Of a stretch of DNA of 64,000 bases, positions 1 to 36,029 are shown in pieces. The stretch is taken from the NCBI RefSeq assembly GCF_050920415.1, contig NZ_CP169309.1; one strand, given 5' to 3'. The DNA is from Escherichia coli (lineage in GTDB: Bacteria > Pseudomonadota > Gammaproteobacteria > Enterobacterales > Enterobacteriaceae). A program made the translations under genes and the position numbers. The notes under the pieces are model-generated. The model worked only from the letters and a program-made list of their open reading frames with translations. It did no database searches and was not told where the DNA came from. The stretch's first letter is position 1, and each line of letters starts with the position of its first letter.

Positions 1-404
1 TTGCGGTATGCAACCCACCATCCGTTCCAGGCTCCGAGAAGCAGTCCCAGAACCAACGTCACAATGATGGTGAGCGGCAAAGGCCAACCTAACCAGACGT
101 CACAAATAGCCGCGACGCCACCTAATAGCCCCATCATTGAGCCGACGGAAAGGTCGATTTCAGCAGAAATTATGACGAACACCATTCCTACCGCGAGGAT
201 GCCGGTAATCGCGGTCTGGCGTAACAGGTTGGAGACGTTACGGGCGCTTAAGTAGGCACCATCGGTGGTCCAGGTAAAGAACAGCATGATTGCGATGATA
301 GCTGCAATCATCACGAAGACCTGCAAATTCAGTGACTTCAGCCCGGAAAAGCCACCGGATGTCGGTACGGCCAATTTCACTTCAGACGGATTGCTTTTCG
401 ACAT
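1..404 (-). CDS. xylH: xylose ABC transporter permease XylH, 5' part only (gene runs off the window start)
   Basis: Minus-strand translation from the ATG at 402-404 reads [32 protein letters not shown], which I recognise as the XylH N-terminus; sits directly downstream of xylG. Confidence 0.85.
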
Positions 405-11838: not shown

Positions 11839-12004
11839 TCGCTAAATAATAGAGCAACCTTTAATAATCTTCTGCTGAATAAAGATTGTCTCATATATTA
11901 ATTTTATGAGATTTTTTAGGATTATATCAAAGAGAAGAAAAGAACTTATTAAGCTAGAATAGCCACAGGTGCTTGAGACTGTTTGTCTCAGGTATTCACC
12001 GAAA

Positions 12005-12065
12005 GGCAGACAGAGAAAAGCCCCACCTGACTATAAATCAAAGTGAGGCCCCTCTATGCATAGAC
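12005..12065 (-). ncRNA. sokA: putative SokA antisense RNA of the hokA type I toxin-antitoxin locus
   Basis: Minus-strand candidate promoter (TTGATT, 17-bp spacer, TAACCT) reading antisense across the upstream in-frame ATG of the hokA ORF, followed by an imperfect hairpin plus U-run; ends inferred, not measured. Confidence 0.3.
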
Positions 12066-12115
12066 ACCATAAGGTTAGCCTCTTACTCGTTGGAAATCAA
12101 CACAGGAGGCTGGGA

Positions 12116-12268
12116 ATGCCGCAGAAATATAGATTACTTTCTTTAATAGTGATTTGTTTCACGCTTTTATTTTTCACCTGGATGATAAGAGATTCACTGT
12201 GTGAATTGCATATTAAACAGGAGAATTATGAGCTGGCGGCGTTTTTAGCCTGCAAATTGAAAGAGTAA
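12116..12268 (+). CDS. hokA: Hok-family small toxic membrane peptide HokA
   Basis: 50-aa ORF MPQKYRLLSLIVICFTLLFFTWMIRDSLCELHIKQENYELAAFLACKLKE preceded by Shine-Dalgarno AGGAGG; Hok family signature. Confidence 0.85.
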   Translation: MPQKYRLLSLIVICFTLLFFTWMIRDSLCELHIKQENYELAAFLACKLKE

Positions 12269-12302: not shown

Positions 12303-12456
12303 ACGGCGTTGCGCATTCTCATTGCACCCAAATTTATTCTTCACAAAAATAATAATAGATTTTATTACGCGAACGATTATTTATTTCCTGAATAAACAAA
12401 TAAAAAAATCCCCGCCATTTGGCAGGGATCTTAGATTCTGTGCTTTTAAGCAGAGA

Positions 12457-12669
12457 TTACAGGCTGGTTACGTTACCAGCTGCCGGGCCTTTAGCGCCGC
12501 TTTCGATGGTGAAGGACACTTTCTGACCTTCGTCCAGAGATTTGTAACCATCGTTCTGGATAGCAGAGAAGTGTACGAACACGTCTTTAGAACCATCGTC
12601 AGGAGTGATGAAGCCGAAGCCTTTGTCAGCGTTGAACCATTTTACGATACCAGTCATTTTACCGGACAT
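12457..12669 (-). CDS. cspA: major cold-shock protein CspA
   Basis: 70-aa [73 protein letters not shown]; cold-shock domain with RNP motifs. Confidence 0.97.
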
Positions 12670-12828
12670 AGTGTATTACCTTTAATAATTAATTGTGCCT
12701 TTCGGCGATATGGCGTGCTTTACAGATTTTGAAGCGTTAAAGGAAATGCACACTACGAGGGGTATCAACGATAACTCTTGAAGGGACTTGCCTTACTACA
12801 CTGCTTTAATGGTCTGTACGTCAAACCG
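12670..12828 (-). promoter_or_regulatory. long cspA 5' untranslated leader (cold-box containing)
   Basis: About 159 nt between the cspA start codon and a sequence whose reverse complement begins ACGGTTTGACGTACAGACC, matching the known cspA transcript 5' end from memory. Confidence 0.6.
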
Positions 12829-12950
12829 TTGAAGTGCATTAAGCCACGCATTGGTGGGTGATGCAACAATTATTTTTCATATTTATGATTAATCGGTTGG
12901 AAAACGGTCCTGTCATCAGGACCGTAAACAGCAATAAAGTGGATAAAAGT

Positions 12951-24025: not shown

Positions 24026-24102
<77 letters not shown>

Positions 24103-24108
24103 AATTCG

Positions 24109-24137
24109 AAAAGCCTGCTCAGCGAGCAGGCTTTTTT
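24109..24137 (+). terminator. rho-independent terminator after tRNA-Pro
   Basis: AGCCTGCTC-AGCG-AGCAGGCT hairpin followed by TTTTTT. Confidence 0.7.
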
Positions 24138-24152
24138 GCATTTGAAGCCCAT

Positions 24153-24270
24153 GAGGATGAGAACCTCCGGGGGCGGGGAGGTTCGACTCGAGCGAAGCGA
24201 GAGAACGTTGCGCCAGCAACGGCCCGCAGGGCGAGCCACGAAGTGGCGAGTAATCCTCTATCACCGACCA
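24153..24270 (+). repeat. tRNA-Pro 3'-end-containing repeat unit 1 (T-arm start, about 63-nt insert, then the last 19 nt of tRNA-Pro)
   Basis: Begins with GGAGGTTCGA (tRNA T-stem) and ends AATCCTCTATCACCGACCA, identical to the proK 3' end; followed by its own terminator at about 24277..24304. Confidence 0.6.
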
Positions 24271-24276
24271 ATTTAG

Positions 24277-24304
24277 AAAAACCAGCCTACGGGCTGGTTT
24301 TTTG
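24277..24304 (+). terminator. rho-independent terminator after repeat unit 1
   Basis: CCAGCC-TACG-GGCTGG hairpin followed by TTTTTT. Confidence 0.6.
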
Positions 24305-24320
24305 CTTTCTGCGGCCTGAA

Positions 24321-24424
24321 GAGGATGAGAACTTCCGGGGGCAGGGAGGTTCGACTCCAGCAAAGCGAGAGAACGTTGTGGCAGCAACGGCCCGCAGTGG
24401 CGAGTAATCCTCTGGCACCGACCA
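24321..24424 (+). repeat. tRNA-Pro 3'-end-containing repeat unit 2 (diverged copy of unit 1 with a 14-nt deletion)
   Basis: About 85 percent identical to unit 1; ends AATCCTCTGGCACCGACCA (two mismatches to the proK 3' end). Confidence 0.6.
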
Positions 24425-24433
24425 AATCTGAAC

Positions 24434-24519
24434 GTAGGCCTGATAAGACGCGTCAGCGCCGCATCAGGCAACGGCACCGCACTTATTGTCGGATGCGGCG
24501 TGAACGCCTTATCTGACCG
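24434..24519. repeat. REP/BIME element (two inverted REP palindromes)
   Basis: GTAGGCCTGATAAGACGCGTCAGCGCCGCATCAGGCA and CGGATGCGGCGTGAACGCCTTATC: canonical REP consensus. Confidence 0.8.
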
Positions 24520-28944: not shown

Positions 28945-29928
28945 ATGGCGTTATTAAATGTAGATAAATTATCGGTGCATTTCGGCGACGAAAGCGCACC
29001 GTTCCGCGCCGTAGACCGTATCAGCTACAGCGTGAAACAAGGCGAAGTGGTCGGAATTGTGGGTGAGTCTGGCTCCGGTAAGTCGGTCAGTTCACTGGCG
29101 ATTATGGGGCTGATTGATTATCCGGGCCGCGTGATGGCAGAAAAGCTGGAGTTTAACGGCCAGGATTTGCAGCGTATCTCGGAAAAAGAGCGCCGCAACC
29201 TGGTGGGTGCCGAAGTGGCGATGATCTTTCAGGACCCGATGACCAGCCTCAACCCGTGTTACACCGTAGGTTTCCAGATTATGGAAGCAATTAAGGTGCA
29301 TCAGGGCGGTAATAAGAGCACTCGCCGTCAGCGGGCGATTGATCTGCTGAATCAGGTCGGTATTCCCGATCCGGCATCGCGTCTGGATGTTTACCCACAT
29401 CAGCTTTCTGGCGGCATGAGCCAGCGTGTGATGATCGCCATGGCGATTGCCTGTCGGCCAAAACTGCTGATTGCTGATGAGCCGACCACCGCGCTGGACG
29501 TGACCATTCAGGCACAAATCATCGAACTGCTGCTGGAGCTGCAGCAGAAAGAGAACATGGCGCTGGTATTGATTACCCATGACCTGGCGCTGGTGGCGGA
29601 AGCGGCGCATAAAATCATCGTCATGTATGCCGGTCAGGTGGTGGAAACGGGCGATGCGCACTCTATCTTTCATGCGCCGCGTCATCCGTATACTCAGGCA
29701 TTGCTGCGTGCGCTGCCGGAATTTGCTCAGGACAAAGAACGTCTGGCGTCGTTGCCTGGCGTCGTTCCTGGCAAATACGACCGTCCGAATGGCTGCCTGC
29801 TTAACCCGCGTTGCCCCTATGCCACTGACAGATGCCGCGCTGAAGAACCGGCGCTGAATATGCTCGCTGACGGGCGTCAGTCCAAATGCCATTACCCACT
29901 TGATGATGCCGGGAGGCCGACACTATGA
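28945..29928 (+). CDS. dppD: dipeptide ABC transporter ATP-binding protein DppD
   Basis: 327-aa ORF; Walker A GESGSGKS and LSGGMSQR signature. Confidence 0.95.
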
Positions 29929-30929
29929 GTACGCATGAGGCCACCTCGCAACAACCGCTGTTGCAGGCTATCGACCTGAAAAAACATTATCCGGTGAAGA
30001 AAGGCATGTTCGCGCCGGAACGTCTGGTTAAAGCGCTGGACGGCGTTTCGTTCAACCTTGAACGTGGCAAAACGCTGGCGGTAGTAGGTGAATCTGGCTG
30101 CGGTAAATCGACCCTCGGTCGGCTGCTGACGATGATCGAAACACCTACCGGCGGCGAACTGTATTACCAGGGGCAGGATCTGCTCAAGCACGATCCGCAG
30201 GCGCAGAAGTTGCGTCGACAGAAAATCCAGATCGTCTTCCAGAATCCCTATGGCTCGCTGAATCCGCGTAAAAAAGTCGGGCAAATTCTCGAAGAGCCGC
30301 TGCTGATCAACACCGGTTTAAGCAAAGAACAGCGTCGGGAAAAAGCGTTGTCGATGATGGCGAAAGTCGGCCTGAAAACCGAGCATTACGATCGCTATCC
30401 GCACATGTTCTCCGGCGGTCAGCGTCAGCGTATCGCCATCGCCCGTGGTCTGATGCTCGACCCGGATGTGGTGATTGCCGATGAACCGGTTTCCGCGCTG
30501 GACGTTTCAGTGCGTGCGCAGGTGCTGAATCTGATGATGGATTTGCAGCAGGAGTTGGGGCTGTCTTATGTCTTTATCTCGCACGACCTGTCGGTGGTGG
30601 AGCACATTGCTGATGAAGTGATGGTGATGTACCTGGGCCGCTGCGTGGAGAAGGGAACGAAGGAGCAAATCTTCAATAACCCGCGTCATCCGTACACCCA
30701 GGCGCTACTCTCCGCGACGCCGCGCCTGAACCCGGACGATCGCCGCGAGCGCATCAAGCTCACCGGTGAACTGCCAAGCCCGCTCAATCCACCGCCGGGC
30801 TGCGCGTTTAACGCCCGCTGTCGTCGGCGCTTCGGCCCCTGCACCCAGTTGCAGCCGCAGCTAAAAGACTACGGCGGTCAACTGGTAGCTTGTTTTGCTG
30901 TTGATCAGGATGAAAATCCGCAGCGGTAA
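29925..30929 (+). CDS. dppF: dipeptide ABC transporter ATP-binding protein DppF
   Basis: 334-aa ORF; Walker [10 protein letters not shown] and FSGGQRQR signature; 4-bp overlap with dppD. Confidence 0.95.
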
Positions 30930-30958
30930 CTCACAAAACCGGGGCCATGCGCTCCGGT

Positions 30959-32230
30959 TTACTCAATCAGCTTCAACAGTGGCGACAAGCATAACAAAAT
31001 GCCGTACAGCAGAATCATCCAGGCTTTAAACCCGCGAAGTTTTTCCAGTTGTGAGACTTTATAGATCAGGAAAAATGGAATGAGGCACGACACAATGCCA
31101 TATAACGGGCTTCCCAACTGAAAGAACACCAGCACCGATACACGAAACGAAACCCAAATCGTCAACGTAATGACGATAAAAGCGCAGATCGCCAGAGTCA
31201 GCATGCGTGAGTTAATTTTCTGGGTATCAATAATTCGGCTTAACAGATTGAGAATAATGCCTTTAATGGCCTCGTGGAAACCGAGATAAATGCCAAAGAA
31301 TGCGGTCAGTACGGCAAAGATATTCAGCACCGTAGAGGTGATATGAATGATATGCCCAGGGATCACCTGCGCGGCCAGTGCCAGTGCCGAGATATTTTGT
31401 TCAAAGGCAGAAACGGCTTCTTCGTGGCTAATTGAGAAGGTAAACGAAAAGGCAAAAAACAGGATCACCGCGATGAGCGTGACATAACTAATTCGGTGGG
31501 TACGCAGCGCGAGCCGGGTTGCCAGTACTTTATCCGCTTCCCGTTTACGATAGGCAATATTCATTGGGTTAAGTACCTGAATAAATACCGCAGAAAAGAA
31601 GCAAAAGGGAATGGTAAGCAGGACATCGCGGAAAAAGACGGAGGCTTGCGGGAAGGCGGTTATATTGGCGAAATTCCAGTGCGGGATCATCGCAAAACCG
31701 AACACGACGATAATCCCTACTTTGACCACCACCATTGGCCCGGAAATCTTAAACAGTAATCGTTCACCACCAGACGCAATTGCCACCAGTACGGCGAAAA
31801 TGGCGACTTTATAAAGTAGAGATTGTGAAAGATCGGCATCGGTTAAACCGAAGGTTTTCAGGTACGAGGCGCTGTCGAAAACCACGGAGAGAGAGTAGAT
31901 AAAAATCCCGTGGATAATCATCAAAAAGTAGATAACCCCGAGGAAAATTCCCCAGTTCTTCCCCAGGTAATGACTGATAATATCGGTGTAGTCATTACAG
32001 GAATCGCTTTCAGAAAGGGTTTTTAAATAAATGTCCTGCACTACCCAGGTGGCAGGATAAGCAATGATCGCTGCGGTAATAAATACCCAAATTCCCTTCA
32101 AGCCAATTTGTACTGGCATCAGCACGGTTCCGGCACCAATCGCCATGCCTATGCATAATAAAACCCAGCCGAAGTCGTAGCGTGTAAACGGCATTTTCTG
32201 ATCGTGTTTCGGTAGTGTGTTGTGCTGCAT
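30959..32230 (-). CDS. yhjV: putative amino-acid transporter YhjV (HAAAP/serine-transporter-like)
   Basis: ORF 30959..32293; start chosen at [15 protein letters not shown] (423 aa); polytopic membrane protein. Confidence 0.8.
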
Positions 32231-32363
32231 AAAGTCCTGTCCAGAAAGAAGTCGGCCTCGCAAAAATGAATAAACCCAGTTTCTCTTGCGCAACAGGTGG
32301 AGAAGTCGAATACGCAGTATGTAAAAAATGAGGCAATAGATTCACTGGGGAGGTCGCGAGGAG

Positions 32364-32385
32364 GCGCAATTCTACAAAATTGCGC
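32364..32385. promoter_or_regulatory. perfect inverted repeat GCGCAATT-N6-AATTGCGC upstream of yhjV
   Basis: 8-bp perfect palindromic arms separated by 6 bp, about 135 bp upstream of the yhjV start; no regulator assigned. Confidence 0.3.
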
Positions 32386-32585
32386 ATTTCACTACCAGTC
32401 TGGAGTCAGCCCGGATATGAACTGCAACTATTGCAAATAAAGAAATTAAGCTGGAAGGCATCACGCAATGAGGAAGATTGCCGGGTGCTGACGGTAAAAA
32501 GCAATCGTAAAATCAGCGGCAAGCCGGAAAGGTTCCGGTGAGGCGCAATGTTGCGGGGGCTTAATCCCTGGTGGCATTGGTTGCT

Positions 32586-32654
32586 GGAGAGAGAAAACCC
32601 CCGCACGTTGCAGATATTCACCTGACAACATCACGGGGGCTAATCTTGAACCTA
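32586..32654 (-). ncRNA. rdlD: Rdl antisense RNA, copy 1 (approximate ends)
   Basis: Minus-strand reading gives a GC-stem hairpin (CCCCCG...CGGGGG) followed by UUUUCUCUC; -10-like TATTCT upstream on minus strand; ends inferred from the Rdl family. Confidence 0.45.
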
Positions 32655-32705
32655 GACCACTCAAGAATAGCCGCGAAACGTTGTCATTACAACACAGGCG
32701 GCTAT

Positions 32706-32813
32706 ATGACGCTCGCAGAACTGGGCATGGCCTTCTGGCATGATTTAGCGGCTCCGGTCATTGCTGGCATTCTTGCCAGTCTGATCGTGAACTGGCTGAA
32801 CAAGCGGAAGTAA
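32706..32813 (+). CDS. ldrD: Ldr type I toxin peptide, copy 1 (35 aa)
   Basis: MTLAELGMAFWHDLAAPVIAGILASLIVNWLNKRK; Ldr family small hydrophobic toxin. Confidence 0.85.
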   Translation: MTLAELGMAFWHDLAAPVIAGILASLIVNWLNKRK

Positions 32814-33071
32814 CGTGTCAGACGGGCGTCAGGCTGCCGTAATGGCAATTTGCGCCCGGACCAGGCCGCAGGGATAAAACTCTGCGGCCTTTTTCGTAAG
32901 AAAAATGCAACGGTTGCAAGCGGATAATATTCTGCGGAATGCGCAGCACAGAGTGAAGAAGTGATGGATTCTGGAACAGAAAAACAGTCGTAGAATCAGC
33001 GGCAAGCCGGAAGGGTTCCGGTGAGGCGCAATGTTGCGGGGGCTTTATCCCTGGTGGCATTGGTTGCTGGA

Positions 33072-33140
33072 GAGAGAAAACCCCCGCACGTTGCAGGTAT
33101 GCACCTGACAACATCACGGGGGCCATTCTTGCATCCAAAC
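33072..33140 (-). ncRNA. rdlD: Rdl antisense RNA, copy 2 (approximate ends)
   Basis: Same structure as copy 1; minus-strand promoter-like TTGTAA, 17-bp spacer, TATTCT. Confidence 0.45.
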
Positions 33141-33188
33141 AATACAAGAATAGCCGCGAAACGTTGTCATTACAACAGAGGCGGCTAT

Positions 33189-33296
33189 ATGACGCTCGCA
33201 GAACTGGGCATGGCCTTCTGGCATGATTTAGCGGCTCCGGTCATTGCTGGCATTCTTGCCAGTCTGATCGTGAACTGGCTGAACAAGCGGAAGTAA
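33189..33296 (+). CDS. ldrD: Ldr type I toxin peptide, copy 2 (35 aa)
   Basis: MTLAELGMAFWHDLAAPVIAGILASLIVNWLNKRK. Confidence 0.85.
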   Translation: MTLAELGMAFWHDLAAPVIAGILASLIVNWLNKRK

Positions 33297-33555
33297 CGTG
33301 TCAGACGGGCGTCAGGCTGCCGTAATGGCAATTTGCGCCCGGACCAGGCCGCAGGGATAAAACTCTGCGGCCTTTTTCGTAAGAAAAATGCAACGGTTGC
33401 AAGCGGATAATATTCTGCGGAATGCGCAGCACAGAGTGAAGAAGTGATGGATTTCGACGAACAAAAATGGCCGTAGAATCAGCGGCAAGCCGGAAGGGTT
33501 CCGGTGAGGCGCAATGTTGCGGGGGGCTTTATCCCTGGTGGCATTGGTTGCTGGA

Positions 33556-33624
33556 GAGAGAAAACCCCCGCACGTTGCAGGTATGCACCTGACAACACCA
33601 CGGGGGCCATTCTTGCATCTAGAC
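33556..33624 (-). ncRNA. rdlD: Rdl antisense RNA, copy 3 (approximate ends)
   Basis: Same structure as copies 1-2. Confidence 0.45.
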
Positions 33625-33672
33625 CATTCAAGAATAGCCGCGAAACGTTGTCATTACAACAGAGGCGGCTAT

Positions 33673-33780
33673 ATGACGCTCGCAGAGCTGGGCATGGCCT
33701 TCTGGCATGATTTAGCGGCTCCGGTCATTGCTGGCATTCTTGCCAGCATGATCGTGAACTGGCTGAACAAGCGGAAGTAA
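33673..33780 (+). CDS. ldrD: Ldr type I toxin peptide, copy 3 (35 aa)
   Basis: MTLAELGMAFWHDLAAPVIAGILASMIVNWLNKRK (L26M relative to copies 1-2). Confidence 0.85.
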   Translation: MTLAELGMAFWHDLAAPVIAGILASMIVNWLNKRK

Positions 33781-34038
33781 CGTGTCAGACGGGCGTCAGG
33801 CTGCCGTAATGGCAATTTGCGCCCGGATCAGGCCGCAGGGATAAAACTCTGCGGCCTTTTTCGTAAGAAAAATGCAACGGTTGCAAGCGGATAATATTCT
33901 GCGGAATGCGCAGCACAGAGTGAAGAAGTGACGGATTCCGGAACAGAAAAACAGTCGTAGAATTAGCGGCAAGCCGGAAGGGTTCCGGTGAGGCGCAATG
34001 TTGCGGGGGCTTTATCCCTGGTGGCATTGGTTGCTGGA

Positions 34039-34107
34039 GAGAGAAAACCCCCGCACGTTGCAGGTATGCACCTGACAACATCACGGGGGCTAATCTTGAA
34101 CCCAAAC
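34039..34107 (-). ncRNA. rdlD: Rdl antisense RNA, copy 4 (approximate ends)
   Basis: Same structure as copies 1-3. Confidence 0.45.
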
Positions 34108-34155
34108 AACTCAAGAATAGCCGCGAAACGTTGTCATTACAACAGAGGCGGCTAT

Positions 34156-34263
34156 ATGACGCTCGCAGAACTGGGCATGGCCTTCTGGCATGATTTAGCG
34201 GCTCCGGTCATTGCTGGCATTCTTGCCAGTCTGATCGTGAACTCGCTGAATAAGTGGAAGTAA
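34156..34263 (+). CDS. ldrD: Ldr type I toxin peptide, copy 4 (35 aa, variant C-terminus)
   Basis: MTLAELGMAFWHDLAAPVIAGILASLIVNSLNKWK (W30S and R34W relative to copies 1-2). Confidence 0.8.
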   Translation: MTLAELGMAFWHDLAAPVIAGILASLIVNSLNKWK

Positions 34264-34349
34264 CGTGTCATGCGGGCGTCAGGCTGCCGTAATGGCAATT
34301 TGCGCCCGGATCAGGCCGCAGGGGTGAAACTCTGCGGCCTTTTTCGTTC

Positions 34350-36029
34350 TTATTGCGGGTAAGGCACCCAGTCGCCGCCGTTCAGGCGAACGTACGGTTT
34401 ATCCTGGTATTGAATAACTACTGCATTTGAGTTCTCGGAGACCGGTGCTGTTTGTGGCAACCCACTGGTGAGTTTTTTCCAGTCAACATTGTCTTCGGTG
34501 AAAATCTTACCATCAAGAACGCGAACCACCAGATCGGAGATAGCCAGGAAGCTGCTCGGTTGGTTGATGACAATCGGTGCCCCCTGATGTGGTGCCTTCA
34601 TGCCGAAGAATTTCACCCCAACGGGGACGTCTGTGATAGACGGGCTAGGGATATCACGTAGGCCAGATACCTGCATTCTGTCGCCCTTCAGCGCGCCACC
34701 GTGTTCCGGCACCACTACCACCATCACTTTACGACCCGATTTCTCCAGTTCAGTAAAGAAGGCGTCCAGCTCATCAAAGAATTTCTGCGCTCGCGCTTTG
34801 TAATCCGCTGTTTTGCTGACGCCCGGATAATGGTTGCCGTCATGCAGTGGAAGCGTGTTGTAGAACGTGGCACTACGGCTGTTTTTATCTTTTTCGGTAA
34901 CGTCCAGCCAGCGGTTAAGCACGGCGGTATCGTCATAAACCGGCGAACCATCAAAGCCCAACAAAATAACCGGCAGATTTGTTTGATCCATCAATTCGGT
35001 CTGCATGCCGCCATTTTCGCGAACTTCTTTCAAAAAACCGCCGAACTGGCCGTTATGTCCCATCATCAGGTGCTGGGTAAAGCCCAGTTTCGACAGGTTA
35101 TCAAACAGATAGCAGTCGTTATTTGCCGGTTGATACAGATTAGTGTGCGAAGTCTGCCCGCAGCTGGCGCGCAGTAAACGGATCGCCGCCGGGCCACTGT
35201 AGGAGGTGGCGGAGTTAAAGTTCTTGAACTCAATATCGAAATGCGACCACAGCGGATGCGACATCAACCCGGCGGCTTCAATATCCGACCAGGAAAGCGA
35301 ACAGATATTAATCACCAGTAGTTCAAATGGCTGAGCATCAGCGGGCAGCGAAGACGGGAAGGTCGATTTACGTTTCGCCTCCGCGTTATAGAAATTATTC
35401 AGCCAGGCGTTAAGGTTCGCCGTTGTTGGCGGTGCAGTTTGTGCGGGCATATCACCCACTACCGGTGCGCCACCCGTCGCCGCAACGGTTGCCGCTGCGT
35501 TACCACCCGTCGTTGTTACAGTGGTCGTCGGTTGACCGGCAGGCCACAAGGAGAAACTTGGTCCCGCCAGGGTAAGTACGTTCAGCCATAGCAGAATGGC
35601 AACCACAAAAACGGTAATGCGAATCCATTGTGACAGGAATAACCAGGCCACTAATAAAACAAAAATGGCCCCAATCATCTGCCAGTTAATAAAGCGTGTG
35701 ACAAGGTCGATTAAATAATCGGTACTGAACCCCGCCACCTGCGAACCCTGGCTCATTATGCTTTCCGGGCCAGGCAACCAGGTGTCATGCCAGAACAAAG
35801 CAAAGCCGATCGGCAGGGCAATCCAGTGGCGTAAGCGATGCAGGCTGTAGCGCGGAATGGGCATCAGCAGAAACGCGGCAAACACCAGATTGAGGAGCGG
35901 ATGGAAGTTAAGATATCCCGCCCACAACAGGCCGAACTTAACCAGAAAATAGAAGTTCCAGCCGGAAAGGCCGCGCCAGTATTGCCAGAGGGAAGAAGGC
36001 ATGGCGGTATTTTGCGTAAATTGAGTCAT
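34350..36029 (-). CDS. bcsG: cellulose biosynthesis protein BcsG (phosphoethanolamine transferase)
   Basis: 559-aa ORF, N-terminal TM segments plus periplasmic alkaline-phosphatase-like domain; head of the bcsEFG operon. Confidence 0.9.

Follow-up and report, generated by a model that had tools for sequence, protein, structure and literature searches.

The module most closely resembling the locus analysed here is the type I toxin-antitoxin pair ldrD/rdlD of Escherichia coli K-12 (LDR-D; b4453/b4454). According to the summaries of Kawano 2002 given in PMC4147584 and PMC8309996, overproduced LdrD stops growth and condenses the nucleoid, and RdlD represses the toxin and relieves its toxicity. 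RNase III-dependent double-stranded RNA has been found at ldrD/rdlD (PMC7373196). Reviews still regard the mechanism of RdlD repression as unresolved (PMC8309996), and a mechanism acting through a leader ORF, ldrX, has been proposed, not demonstrated (PMC4147584). For the paralogue LdrA, which is reported to be 57% identical to LdrD, a drop in ATP has been described (PMC8309996). Three other LDR units lie in tandem elsewhere in the K-12 genome (PMC4147584).

Multiplication of these modules is not new. BL21(DE3) has three ldrD/rdlD pairs between bcsG and yhjV as compared to one in K-12, and RdlD transcripts have been reported (PMC5435950). Lineage-specific duplication is a feature of the Ldr loci of enterobacteria (PMC2887945). 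The ibs/sib and zor/orz loci similarly consist of strain-variable tandem units, each with a small toxin and an antisense RNA, within one intergenic region (PMC2887945, PMC11264685), although they belong to unrelated toxin families and have a different antisense geometry. Discrimination between cognate and non-cognate partners has been shown for Sib/Ibs (PMC2943612), whereas a counterpart for Rdl/Ldr is only a possibility.

Here we describe a tandem Ldr/Rdl array in the window, by which we mean the whole 64,000-nucleotide stretch of E. coli contig NZ_CP169309.1 that was analysed. This region is very probably a four-unit allele of the E. coli LDR-D locus, made up of complete ldrD/rdlD modules and generated by unequal recombination.

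Organization of the array

The array is flanked on the left by yhjV (30959..32230, - strand), onto which the RefSeq annotation of strain N96 was transferred, and on the right by bcsG (34350..36029, - strand), identified from the ORF list and the same transfer. With four units, the distance from the yhjV start to the bcsG stop amounts to ~2.1 kb, as compared to ~0.67 kb in K-12. The first-pass annotation had placed the array between these two genes, and both the N96 annotation and a comparison with K-12 bore this out. It had also claimed a four-copy tandem array at 32505-34345 with units of about 483 bp and had proposed a self-comparison of the region. Tandem Repeats Finder returned a single array at 32497-34347 with a period of 483 bp, 3.8 copies, 95% matches and 0% indels, and the repeat analysis showed four head-to-tail copies in register, successive copies being spaced 483, 484 and 483 nt apart, in agreement with the claim.

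The whole array (32497..34347, + strand) comprises four functional ldr/rdl cores, all of which are complete, and three inter-unit spacers, as judged from the Tandem Repeats Finder and repeat family results. In the alignment, the spacer between units 1 and 2, which contains the putative promoter region for the ldr gene of the unit that follows, was located at 32893..32988 (+ strand), and the equivalent spacers were found at ~33376-33471 and ~33860-33955 on the same strand. The fourth period stops at the ldr terminator, 3 nt short of the bcsG stop codon, and lacks the ~96-nt inter-unit spacer; the count of 3.8 periods results from this. Upstream of unit 1, the sequence at 32361..32496 (+ strand) aligned with the spacer as a degenerate copy that retains the relic of a terminator-like hairpin, indicating that the periodicity of the array continues upstream in a decayed form.

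The Ldr toxin reading frames

Each of the four units was found to contain what had been claimed for it, that is, a 35-codon ldr ORF, a terminator of its own and an antisense Rdl-like region (4/4 units). The toxin ORFs are all on the + strand. The ORF of unit 1 (32706..32813) encodes MTLAELGMAFWHDLAAPVIAGILASLIVNWLNKRK and was identified from its Pfam match and the RefSeq annotation of the N96 orthologue; translation of the ORF of unit 2 (33189..33296) gave the same peptide. Unit 3 (33673..33780) encodes an L26M variant, ...ASMIVNWLNKRK, which is the commonest LdrD-type peptide in E. coli, and unit 4 (34156..34263) carries the two substitutions W29S and R34W (...IVNSLNKWK). Pfam PF13940 (Ldr_toxin) was matched over positions 1-35 of 35 by the peptide of units 1 and 2 (E = 6.2e-26) and by that of unit 4 (E = 9.7e-22). 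The window peptides are identical at 33/35 positions to the LdrD of PDB 5LBJ, an NMR structure. None of the three variants of the Ldr peptide matched an NCBIfam HMM, and neither did the 25-aa upstream ORF described below, these peptides probably being too short for the filters; despite this, RefSeq names such peptides Ldr family toxins. Together with the matches to Rfam RF01813 given below, the Pfam match and the identity to 5LBJ corroborated the assignment to the Ldr/Rdl type I toxin-antitoxin family.

A Trp residue is regarded as the signature of the Ldr/Fst superfamily (Fozo et al., PMC2887945). The signature stretch reads NWLNKRK in units 1-3 and NSLNKWK in unit 4, where the conserved Trp is replaced, and many strains have W29S fixed in the unit nearest to bcsG. 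The peptide of unit 4 may thus be attenuated, and the four units may not all be equally functional. Nevertheless, no segment of the unit varies less than the ldr ORF, where 7 sites out of 108 (0.065) carry non-singleton variants, and this low variability argues for purifying selection.

The Rdl antisense RNAs

Four 66-nt rdl genes were detected on the - strand with Rfam RF01813 (rdlD), which has a gathering score of 50 bits, and all matches spanned model positions 1-66 of 66: unit 1 at 32592..32657 (85.5 bits), unit 2 at 33075..33140 (82.9 bits), unit 3 at 33559..33624 (81.8 bits) and unit 4 at 34042..34107 (90.4 bits). The 5' end of Rdl is located 48 nt upstream of the ldr ATG in every unit, within the toxin 5' UTR and not over the start codon. 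The same 48-nt gap is present in the curated K-12 record, in which ldrD is at 3699980-3700087 and rdlD at 3700136-3700199. Based on the sequence and Rfam comparison, Rdl consists of a single-stranded 5' tail of ~11-16 nt followed by a long terminator stem-loop. The variation in this tail resembles the discrimination determinants of the Sib RNAs (PMC2943612).

Membership in the hok/sok family was considered and rejected, given that the ldr 5' UTRs scored only 27-30 bits to RF01794 (sok), the gathering score of which is 59. A true hok/sok-type locus was found elsewhere in the window, at 11967-12118 (112.8 bits).

Transcription signals and the upstream reading frame

The array contains 8 terminator-like sites, one per transcript per unit, as compared to 2.9 +/- 1.9 in shuffled sequences; four of these hairpins belong to ldr on the + strand and four to Rdl on the - strand. 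The ldr terminators were located by the terminator scan at 32863..32897 in unit 1 (an 11-bp stem followed by a T run), 33346..33380 in unit 2, 33830..33864 in unit 3 and 34313..34347 in unit 4, the last of these ending 3 nt before the bcsG stop codon. The predicted fold of the ldr mRNA was far more stable than that of shuffled sequences (z = -7.0).

A sigma-70 consensus scan of the array returned no promoter at the stringency of the scan, and the promoter positions were therefore deduced solely from the transcript geometry known in K-12. By this geometry the putative ldr -10 hexamer lies ~190 nt upstream of the ATG and reads TAAAAT in unit 1 (32508..32513, + strand, assigned on position only) and TAGAAT in units 2-4. 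The putative rdl promoter of unit 1 (32664..32692, - strand) would consist of TTGTAA, a 17-nt spacer and TATTCT, and coincides with a nearly invariant stretch in the diversity profile.

The ORF list also includes an upstream ORF of 25 codons that lies within the 5' UTR of ldr and is partly overlapped by rdl. In unit 1 it is located at 32548..32625 (+ strand) and encodes MLRGLNPWWHWLLERENPRTLQIFT; the equivalent ORFs at 33031-33108 and 33998-34075 are on the same strand. The corresponding ORF of unit 3 is joined in frame to ldr by a +1 G, resulting in an ORF of 88 aa (33514-33780, + strand). Among 43 units examined the upstream ORF was intact in 37, fused to ldr by a +1 G in 5 (including unit 3 of the window) and truncated in 1. 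This ORF may or may not correspond to the proposed leader ldrX.

Comparison with the described loci

As far as can be judged from sequence, the features of ldrD/rdlD are all found in the window, with the exception of the Trp signature in unit 4. The array shares with K-12 ldrD/rdlD the site, the orientation, the terminators and the 48-nt offset between the Rdl start and the toxin start codon; the peptides are identical at 33-34/35 positions and the Rdl RNAs differ at 4-7 of 66 nt. The K-12 locus consists of one unit without the spacer, whereas the window has four units with the ~96-nt spacer and the W29S/R34W substitutions in unit 4. That K-12 has a single unit at this site, as the first-pass annotation stated, was confirmed in the curated K-12 record. 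Its statement that a triplicated array is located at the unlinked ldrABC site agrees with PMC4147584 and with the 4 matching places found in K-12. The ldrABC/rdlABC units (LDR-A, -B and -C) likewise form a tandem array of Ldr/Rdl modules, which share their family and architecture with the present units but differ from them in their unlinked locus, a longer period (~520-540 bp in Escherichia relatives) and diverged LdrA/B peptides.

The array of BL21(DE3) between bcsG and yhjV is of the same kind, at the same locus and with the same 483-bp period. It contains three units as opposed to four here, and its unit haplotypes belong to the other lineage in the neighbour-joining tree. The last unit of BL21(DE3) is of the K-12 LdrD type (F3, M26).

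Copy number in E. coli

The array and its flanks were compared with the complete E. coli genomes using megablast, and 5,425/5,426 genomes were matched (5,438 matching records). In a systematic sample of 60 score-ordered records, Ldr genes were counted between yhjV and bcsG, and the five-copy and other locus structures were verified. One copy was found in 22 records (including K-12 MG1655 and O157), two in 7, three in 18 (including BL21), four in 11 and five in 1. Because single-copy loci such as that of K-12 lack the inter-unit spacer, the spacer provides an independent measure of copy number. As a query it matched 3,304/5,426 genomes, in which the total of 6,991 matching places was distributed at 1-4 per genome, and in a sample of 60 genomes one, two, three and four spacers were present in 8, 34, 16 and 2 genomes, respectively. 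The two measures together gave estimates of ~37-39% for one copy, 8-12% for two, 30-35% for three, 16-18% for four and ~2% for five; given that RefSeq is a biased sample of E. coli, these percentages, which derive from two systematic samples of 60 and the whole-collection spacer counts, are descriptive only. More than five copies at this site were not seen among the 5,426 complete E. coli genomes.

The suggestion that the copy number might be strain-specific was thus only partly borne out, since the locus is polymorphic throughout the species, with 1-5 units, and four copies occur in ~16-18% of complete genomes. In the same way, the comparison across E. coli genomes that had been proposed did reveal variation in copy number, but four copies proved to be common and not peculiar to a strain. 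The notion of a local expansion relative to K-12 holds in so far as K-12 has one unit here, but K-12 represents the low end of the range of 1-5. In four-copy strains, for example N96, RefSeq annotates four genes as 'type I toxin-antitoxin system toxin Ldr family protein'. The locus is known to be polymorphic, and its four-copy allele is common, has already been annotated and is no novelty.

Origin and distribution of the arrays

A neighbour-joining tree was constructed for 43 units from 15 loci. Across strains, the first units of the arrays clustered together, as did the last units, whereas internal units clustered by lineage. Four-copy arrays fell into two haplotype families, one with the window, N96 and FDAARGOS_497 and the other with OkiPb01706 and CH4790. 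The presence of four-copy arrays in at least two haplotype backgrounds indicates recurrent gain and loss and not a single local expansion, and recurrent unequal crossing-over would be expected to produce such a grouping by position and lineage together with two haplotype families. The two genomes that came next in similarity over 24 kb (98.6%) had a matched region shorter by ~1 kb, which fits two fewer units. Unequal homologous recombination between the 483-bp repeats would repeatedly add and remove units and so give rise to the 1-5 copies found among strains.

Other genera were scanned with a conserved 19-mer of Rdl, using one genome per bacterial species. Ldr units adjoin bcsG in Citrobacter, Salmonella enterica subsp. 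arizonae/diarizonae, the Klebsiella oxytoca group, Kluyvera and Pseudocitrobacter, and tandem arrays of 2-3 units were found in K. michiganensis, K. spallanzanii and K. oxytoca (Klebsiella) and in Kluyvera sichuanensis and Kluyvera ascorbata. These findings suggest that the site is old and that amplification is recurrent; the arrays of the other genera probably arose independently. An origin by a mobile element was rejected on the basis of the adjacency to bcsG across several Enterobacteriaceae genera and of the location of matching places, only 30/26,161 of which were on plasmids.

Proposed mechanism

By homology with K-12 LdrD/RdlD, rightward transcription of each unit would yield a highly structured mRNA for ldr of ~370 nt, with a 5' UTR of ~180 nt and its own intrinsic terminator, in which the 35-codon ORF would encode a single-helix inner-membrane peptide. 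Leftward transcription of each unit, starting at a putative promoter immediately upstream of the ribosome-binding region of ldr, would yield the 66-nt Rdl. As in K-12, Rdl is expected to pair with the ldr 5' UTR and block toxin synthesis, the Rdl/ldr duplex is likely to be a substrate for RNase III, and overproduced toxin would stop growth and condense the nucleoid.

Alternative explanations

Since tandem repeats of ~0.5 kb exceed the length of short reads and can be mis-counted, the 483-bp repeat might have been mis-resolved in the assembly and the true locus might have fewer or more units; furthermore, the source isolate is outside the complete-genome collection (best 24-kb match 99.2%), so that there is no second assembly of it. 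Against this, all four units differ from one another, at 11-22 of 393 aligned positions in pairwise comparisons (94.4-97.2% identity). They are therefore not an assembler's copies of one sequence and can be resolved. The independent assembly of strain N96, which outside the array differs from the window by ~4% in dppF (best 24-kb identity 99.2%), contains these four units in an unchanged order and differs from them by a single mismatch (position 32754, changing P17 to S in N96 unit 1). Four-unit arrays are moreover present in ~16-18% of complete, mostly long-read, genomes. Given the divergence of the units and the near-identical N96 array, an assembly artefact is unlikely, and we consider a wrong unit count at this locus to be very improbable.

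The differences between the units could also mean that the array is partly decaying, with only some units active and others, in particular unit 4, drifting towards pseudogenes or antitoxin-only loci of the kind known for zor/orz (PMC11264685). The loss from unit 4 of the Trp that Fozo et al. give as the Ldr/Fst signature (PMC2887945), the fixation of W29S in the bcsG-proximal unit of many strains and the frameshifts in the upstream ORF that affect unit 3 as well as 5 further units among the 43 examined are compatible with this idea. It appears unlikely, however, given that the four ORFs are intact at 35 codons with strong Pfam matches, that the four Rdl genes, both sets of terminators and the putative promoters are conserved, and that the low variability of the ldr ORF points to purifying selection. 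Alternatively, the differences may reflect functional diversification, in which the units are insulated, each Rdl prefers its own ldr mRNA and additional copies contribute modules rather than dosage. Variation between units is indeed concentrated in the single-stranded 5' tail of Rdl, where non-singleton variants were found at 8/17 positions, the rate per position in the other segments being 0.07-0.15 (p = 0.003 in a permutation test for clustering). The four tails in the window are all distinct, with 2-6 differences within Rdl nt 1-24, and represent the four combinations of two linked substitution blocks, and in 11/12 of the examined arrays with at least two units all tails were distinct (four units could not be scored); such discrimination has a precedent in the Sib/Ibs family (PMC2943612). 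On the other hand, the stem-loop of Rdl hardly differs between the units, and the linked substitutions may derive from a few gene-conversion tracts together with positional orthology, in which case the sites are not independent. The duplex energies, considered as support for insulation, were rejected: predicted Rdl/ldr duplexes had energies of -136 to -144 kcal/mol for cognate and -107 to -135 kcal/mol for non-cognate pairs, i.e. all pairings were very stable and no discrimination was seen. With stable non-cognate duplexes and non-independent sites, insulation is only a possibility, and we hold a diversified array to be a tentative and rather improbable reading. The wider proposal that multi-copy LDR-D arrays in general are sets of mutually insulated pairs, in which the hypervariable tail (Rdl nt 1-17) would serve as a specificity code as in Sib/Ibs, is doubtful.

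Implications

With the region taken as a four-unit allele of the LDR-D locus, its significance goes little beyond correct annotation, the module being a textbook type I toxin-antitoxin system and the tandem copy-number variation at the site being already visible in RefSeq annotation and in the literature on BL21(DE3). Caution is warranted for short-read assemblies, in which Ldr units may be mis-counted. Given that the Ldr copy number varies between close relatives, the single copy of K-12 should not be taken as the norm. The differences concentrated in the 5' tails of Rdl might allow the units to be regulated independently of one another. If so, expansion of the array would create new, independently regulated modules, of which the distal W29S unit could be a diverged or attenuated member.

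Sequence variation among the four units

Differences between the units of the array are concentrated in the single-stranded 5' tail of the antisense RNA Rdl (nucleotides 1-16; minus strand, 32642-32657, 33125-33140, 33609-33624 and 34092-34107 in units 1-4, numbered from the yhjV side), in which 8 of 17 positions were variable as compared to a rate of 0.07-0.15 in the other segments (p = 0.003 for the clustering). The four units of the window carry four distinct tails, which are assembled from two linked substitution blocks. This variation could be a specificity determinant, or it could simply reflect positional orthology together with gene conversion.

The run of five G residues (GGGGG) was extended by one G (GGGGGG) in unit 3, and as a result an upstream ATG shares the reading frame of ldr. 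The fused ORF has 88 codons (33514-33780) and replaces the 25-codon upstream ORF. Of the 43 ldr/rdl units examined, 6 have the additional G, unit 3 among them, and the fusion results in five of these. The Ldr peptide encoded by the bcsG-proximal unit 4 (34156-34263) carries the two substitutions W29S and R34W, the former of which removes a tryptophan that is conserved in the superfamily. The exact DNA sequence of the 3' end of this ldr gene was found in only two of 5,426 complete genomes (N96, the nearest E. coli genome, and MFDS1022581). A one-base variant of this sequence is widespread, with 042, IAI39, SMS-3-5 and CE10 among the strains that have it. FDAARGOS_497 was the strain checked for the encoded peptide, and its version has W29S but not R34W.

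History of the locus

Upstream of unit 1 (32361-32496) the inter-unit spacer recurs in degenerate form and retains a relic of the ldr terminator hairpin (AGGCGCAATTCTACAAAATTGCGCATTT), which suggests that an older unit has decayed here or that the tandem state is ancestral. When the window was compared with N96, the dppD/dppF-yhjV side (29500-31600) showed 65 mismatches in 1.5 kb (about 4%). The two sequences were nearly identical, by contrast, across the ldr array and on the bcsG side. This shift in divergence indicates a recombination breakpoint near yhjV.

Other RNA features in the window

The ldr 5' UTRs of units 1-4 (plus strand, 32555-32708, 33038-33191, 33522-33675 and 34005-34158) matched the Rfam sok model RF01794 only weakly, at 27-30 bits (E about 1e-3) and thus below the gathering score of 59. 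These matches may reflect the hok-like organisation that has been proposed for ldr mRNAs or may have arisen by chance. A strong match to the same model (112.8 bits; plus strand, 11967-12118) marks another type I toxin-antitoxin RNA locus in the window, which adjoins the cspA thermoregulator 5' UTR (minus strand, 12402-12830, 493 bits). In the region 24026-24518, two RtT RNA repeats scoring 100 and 63 bits come after tRNA-Pro(CGG), and there is an naRNA4 match on the opposite strand. The arrangement seems to be a common type of tRNA-linked repeat region.

Ldr arrays in other genera

An E. coli-type ldr/rdl unit, with a peptide 91% identical, was found on the 'Bacillus sp.' contig NZ_JABWSY010000055.1; this contig is tiny (503 bp) and of low coverage (0.66), and the unit is almost certainly contamination. 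Tandem Ldr arrays of 2-3 units adjacent to bcsG, with periods of about 477-530 bp, were identified in Klebsiella michiganensis, K. spallanzanii, K. oxytoca, Kluyvera sichuanensis and Kluyvera ascorbata. They and the E. coli array are probably of independent origin.
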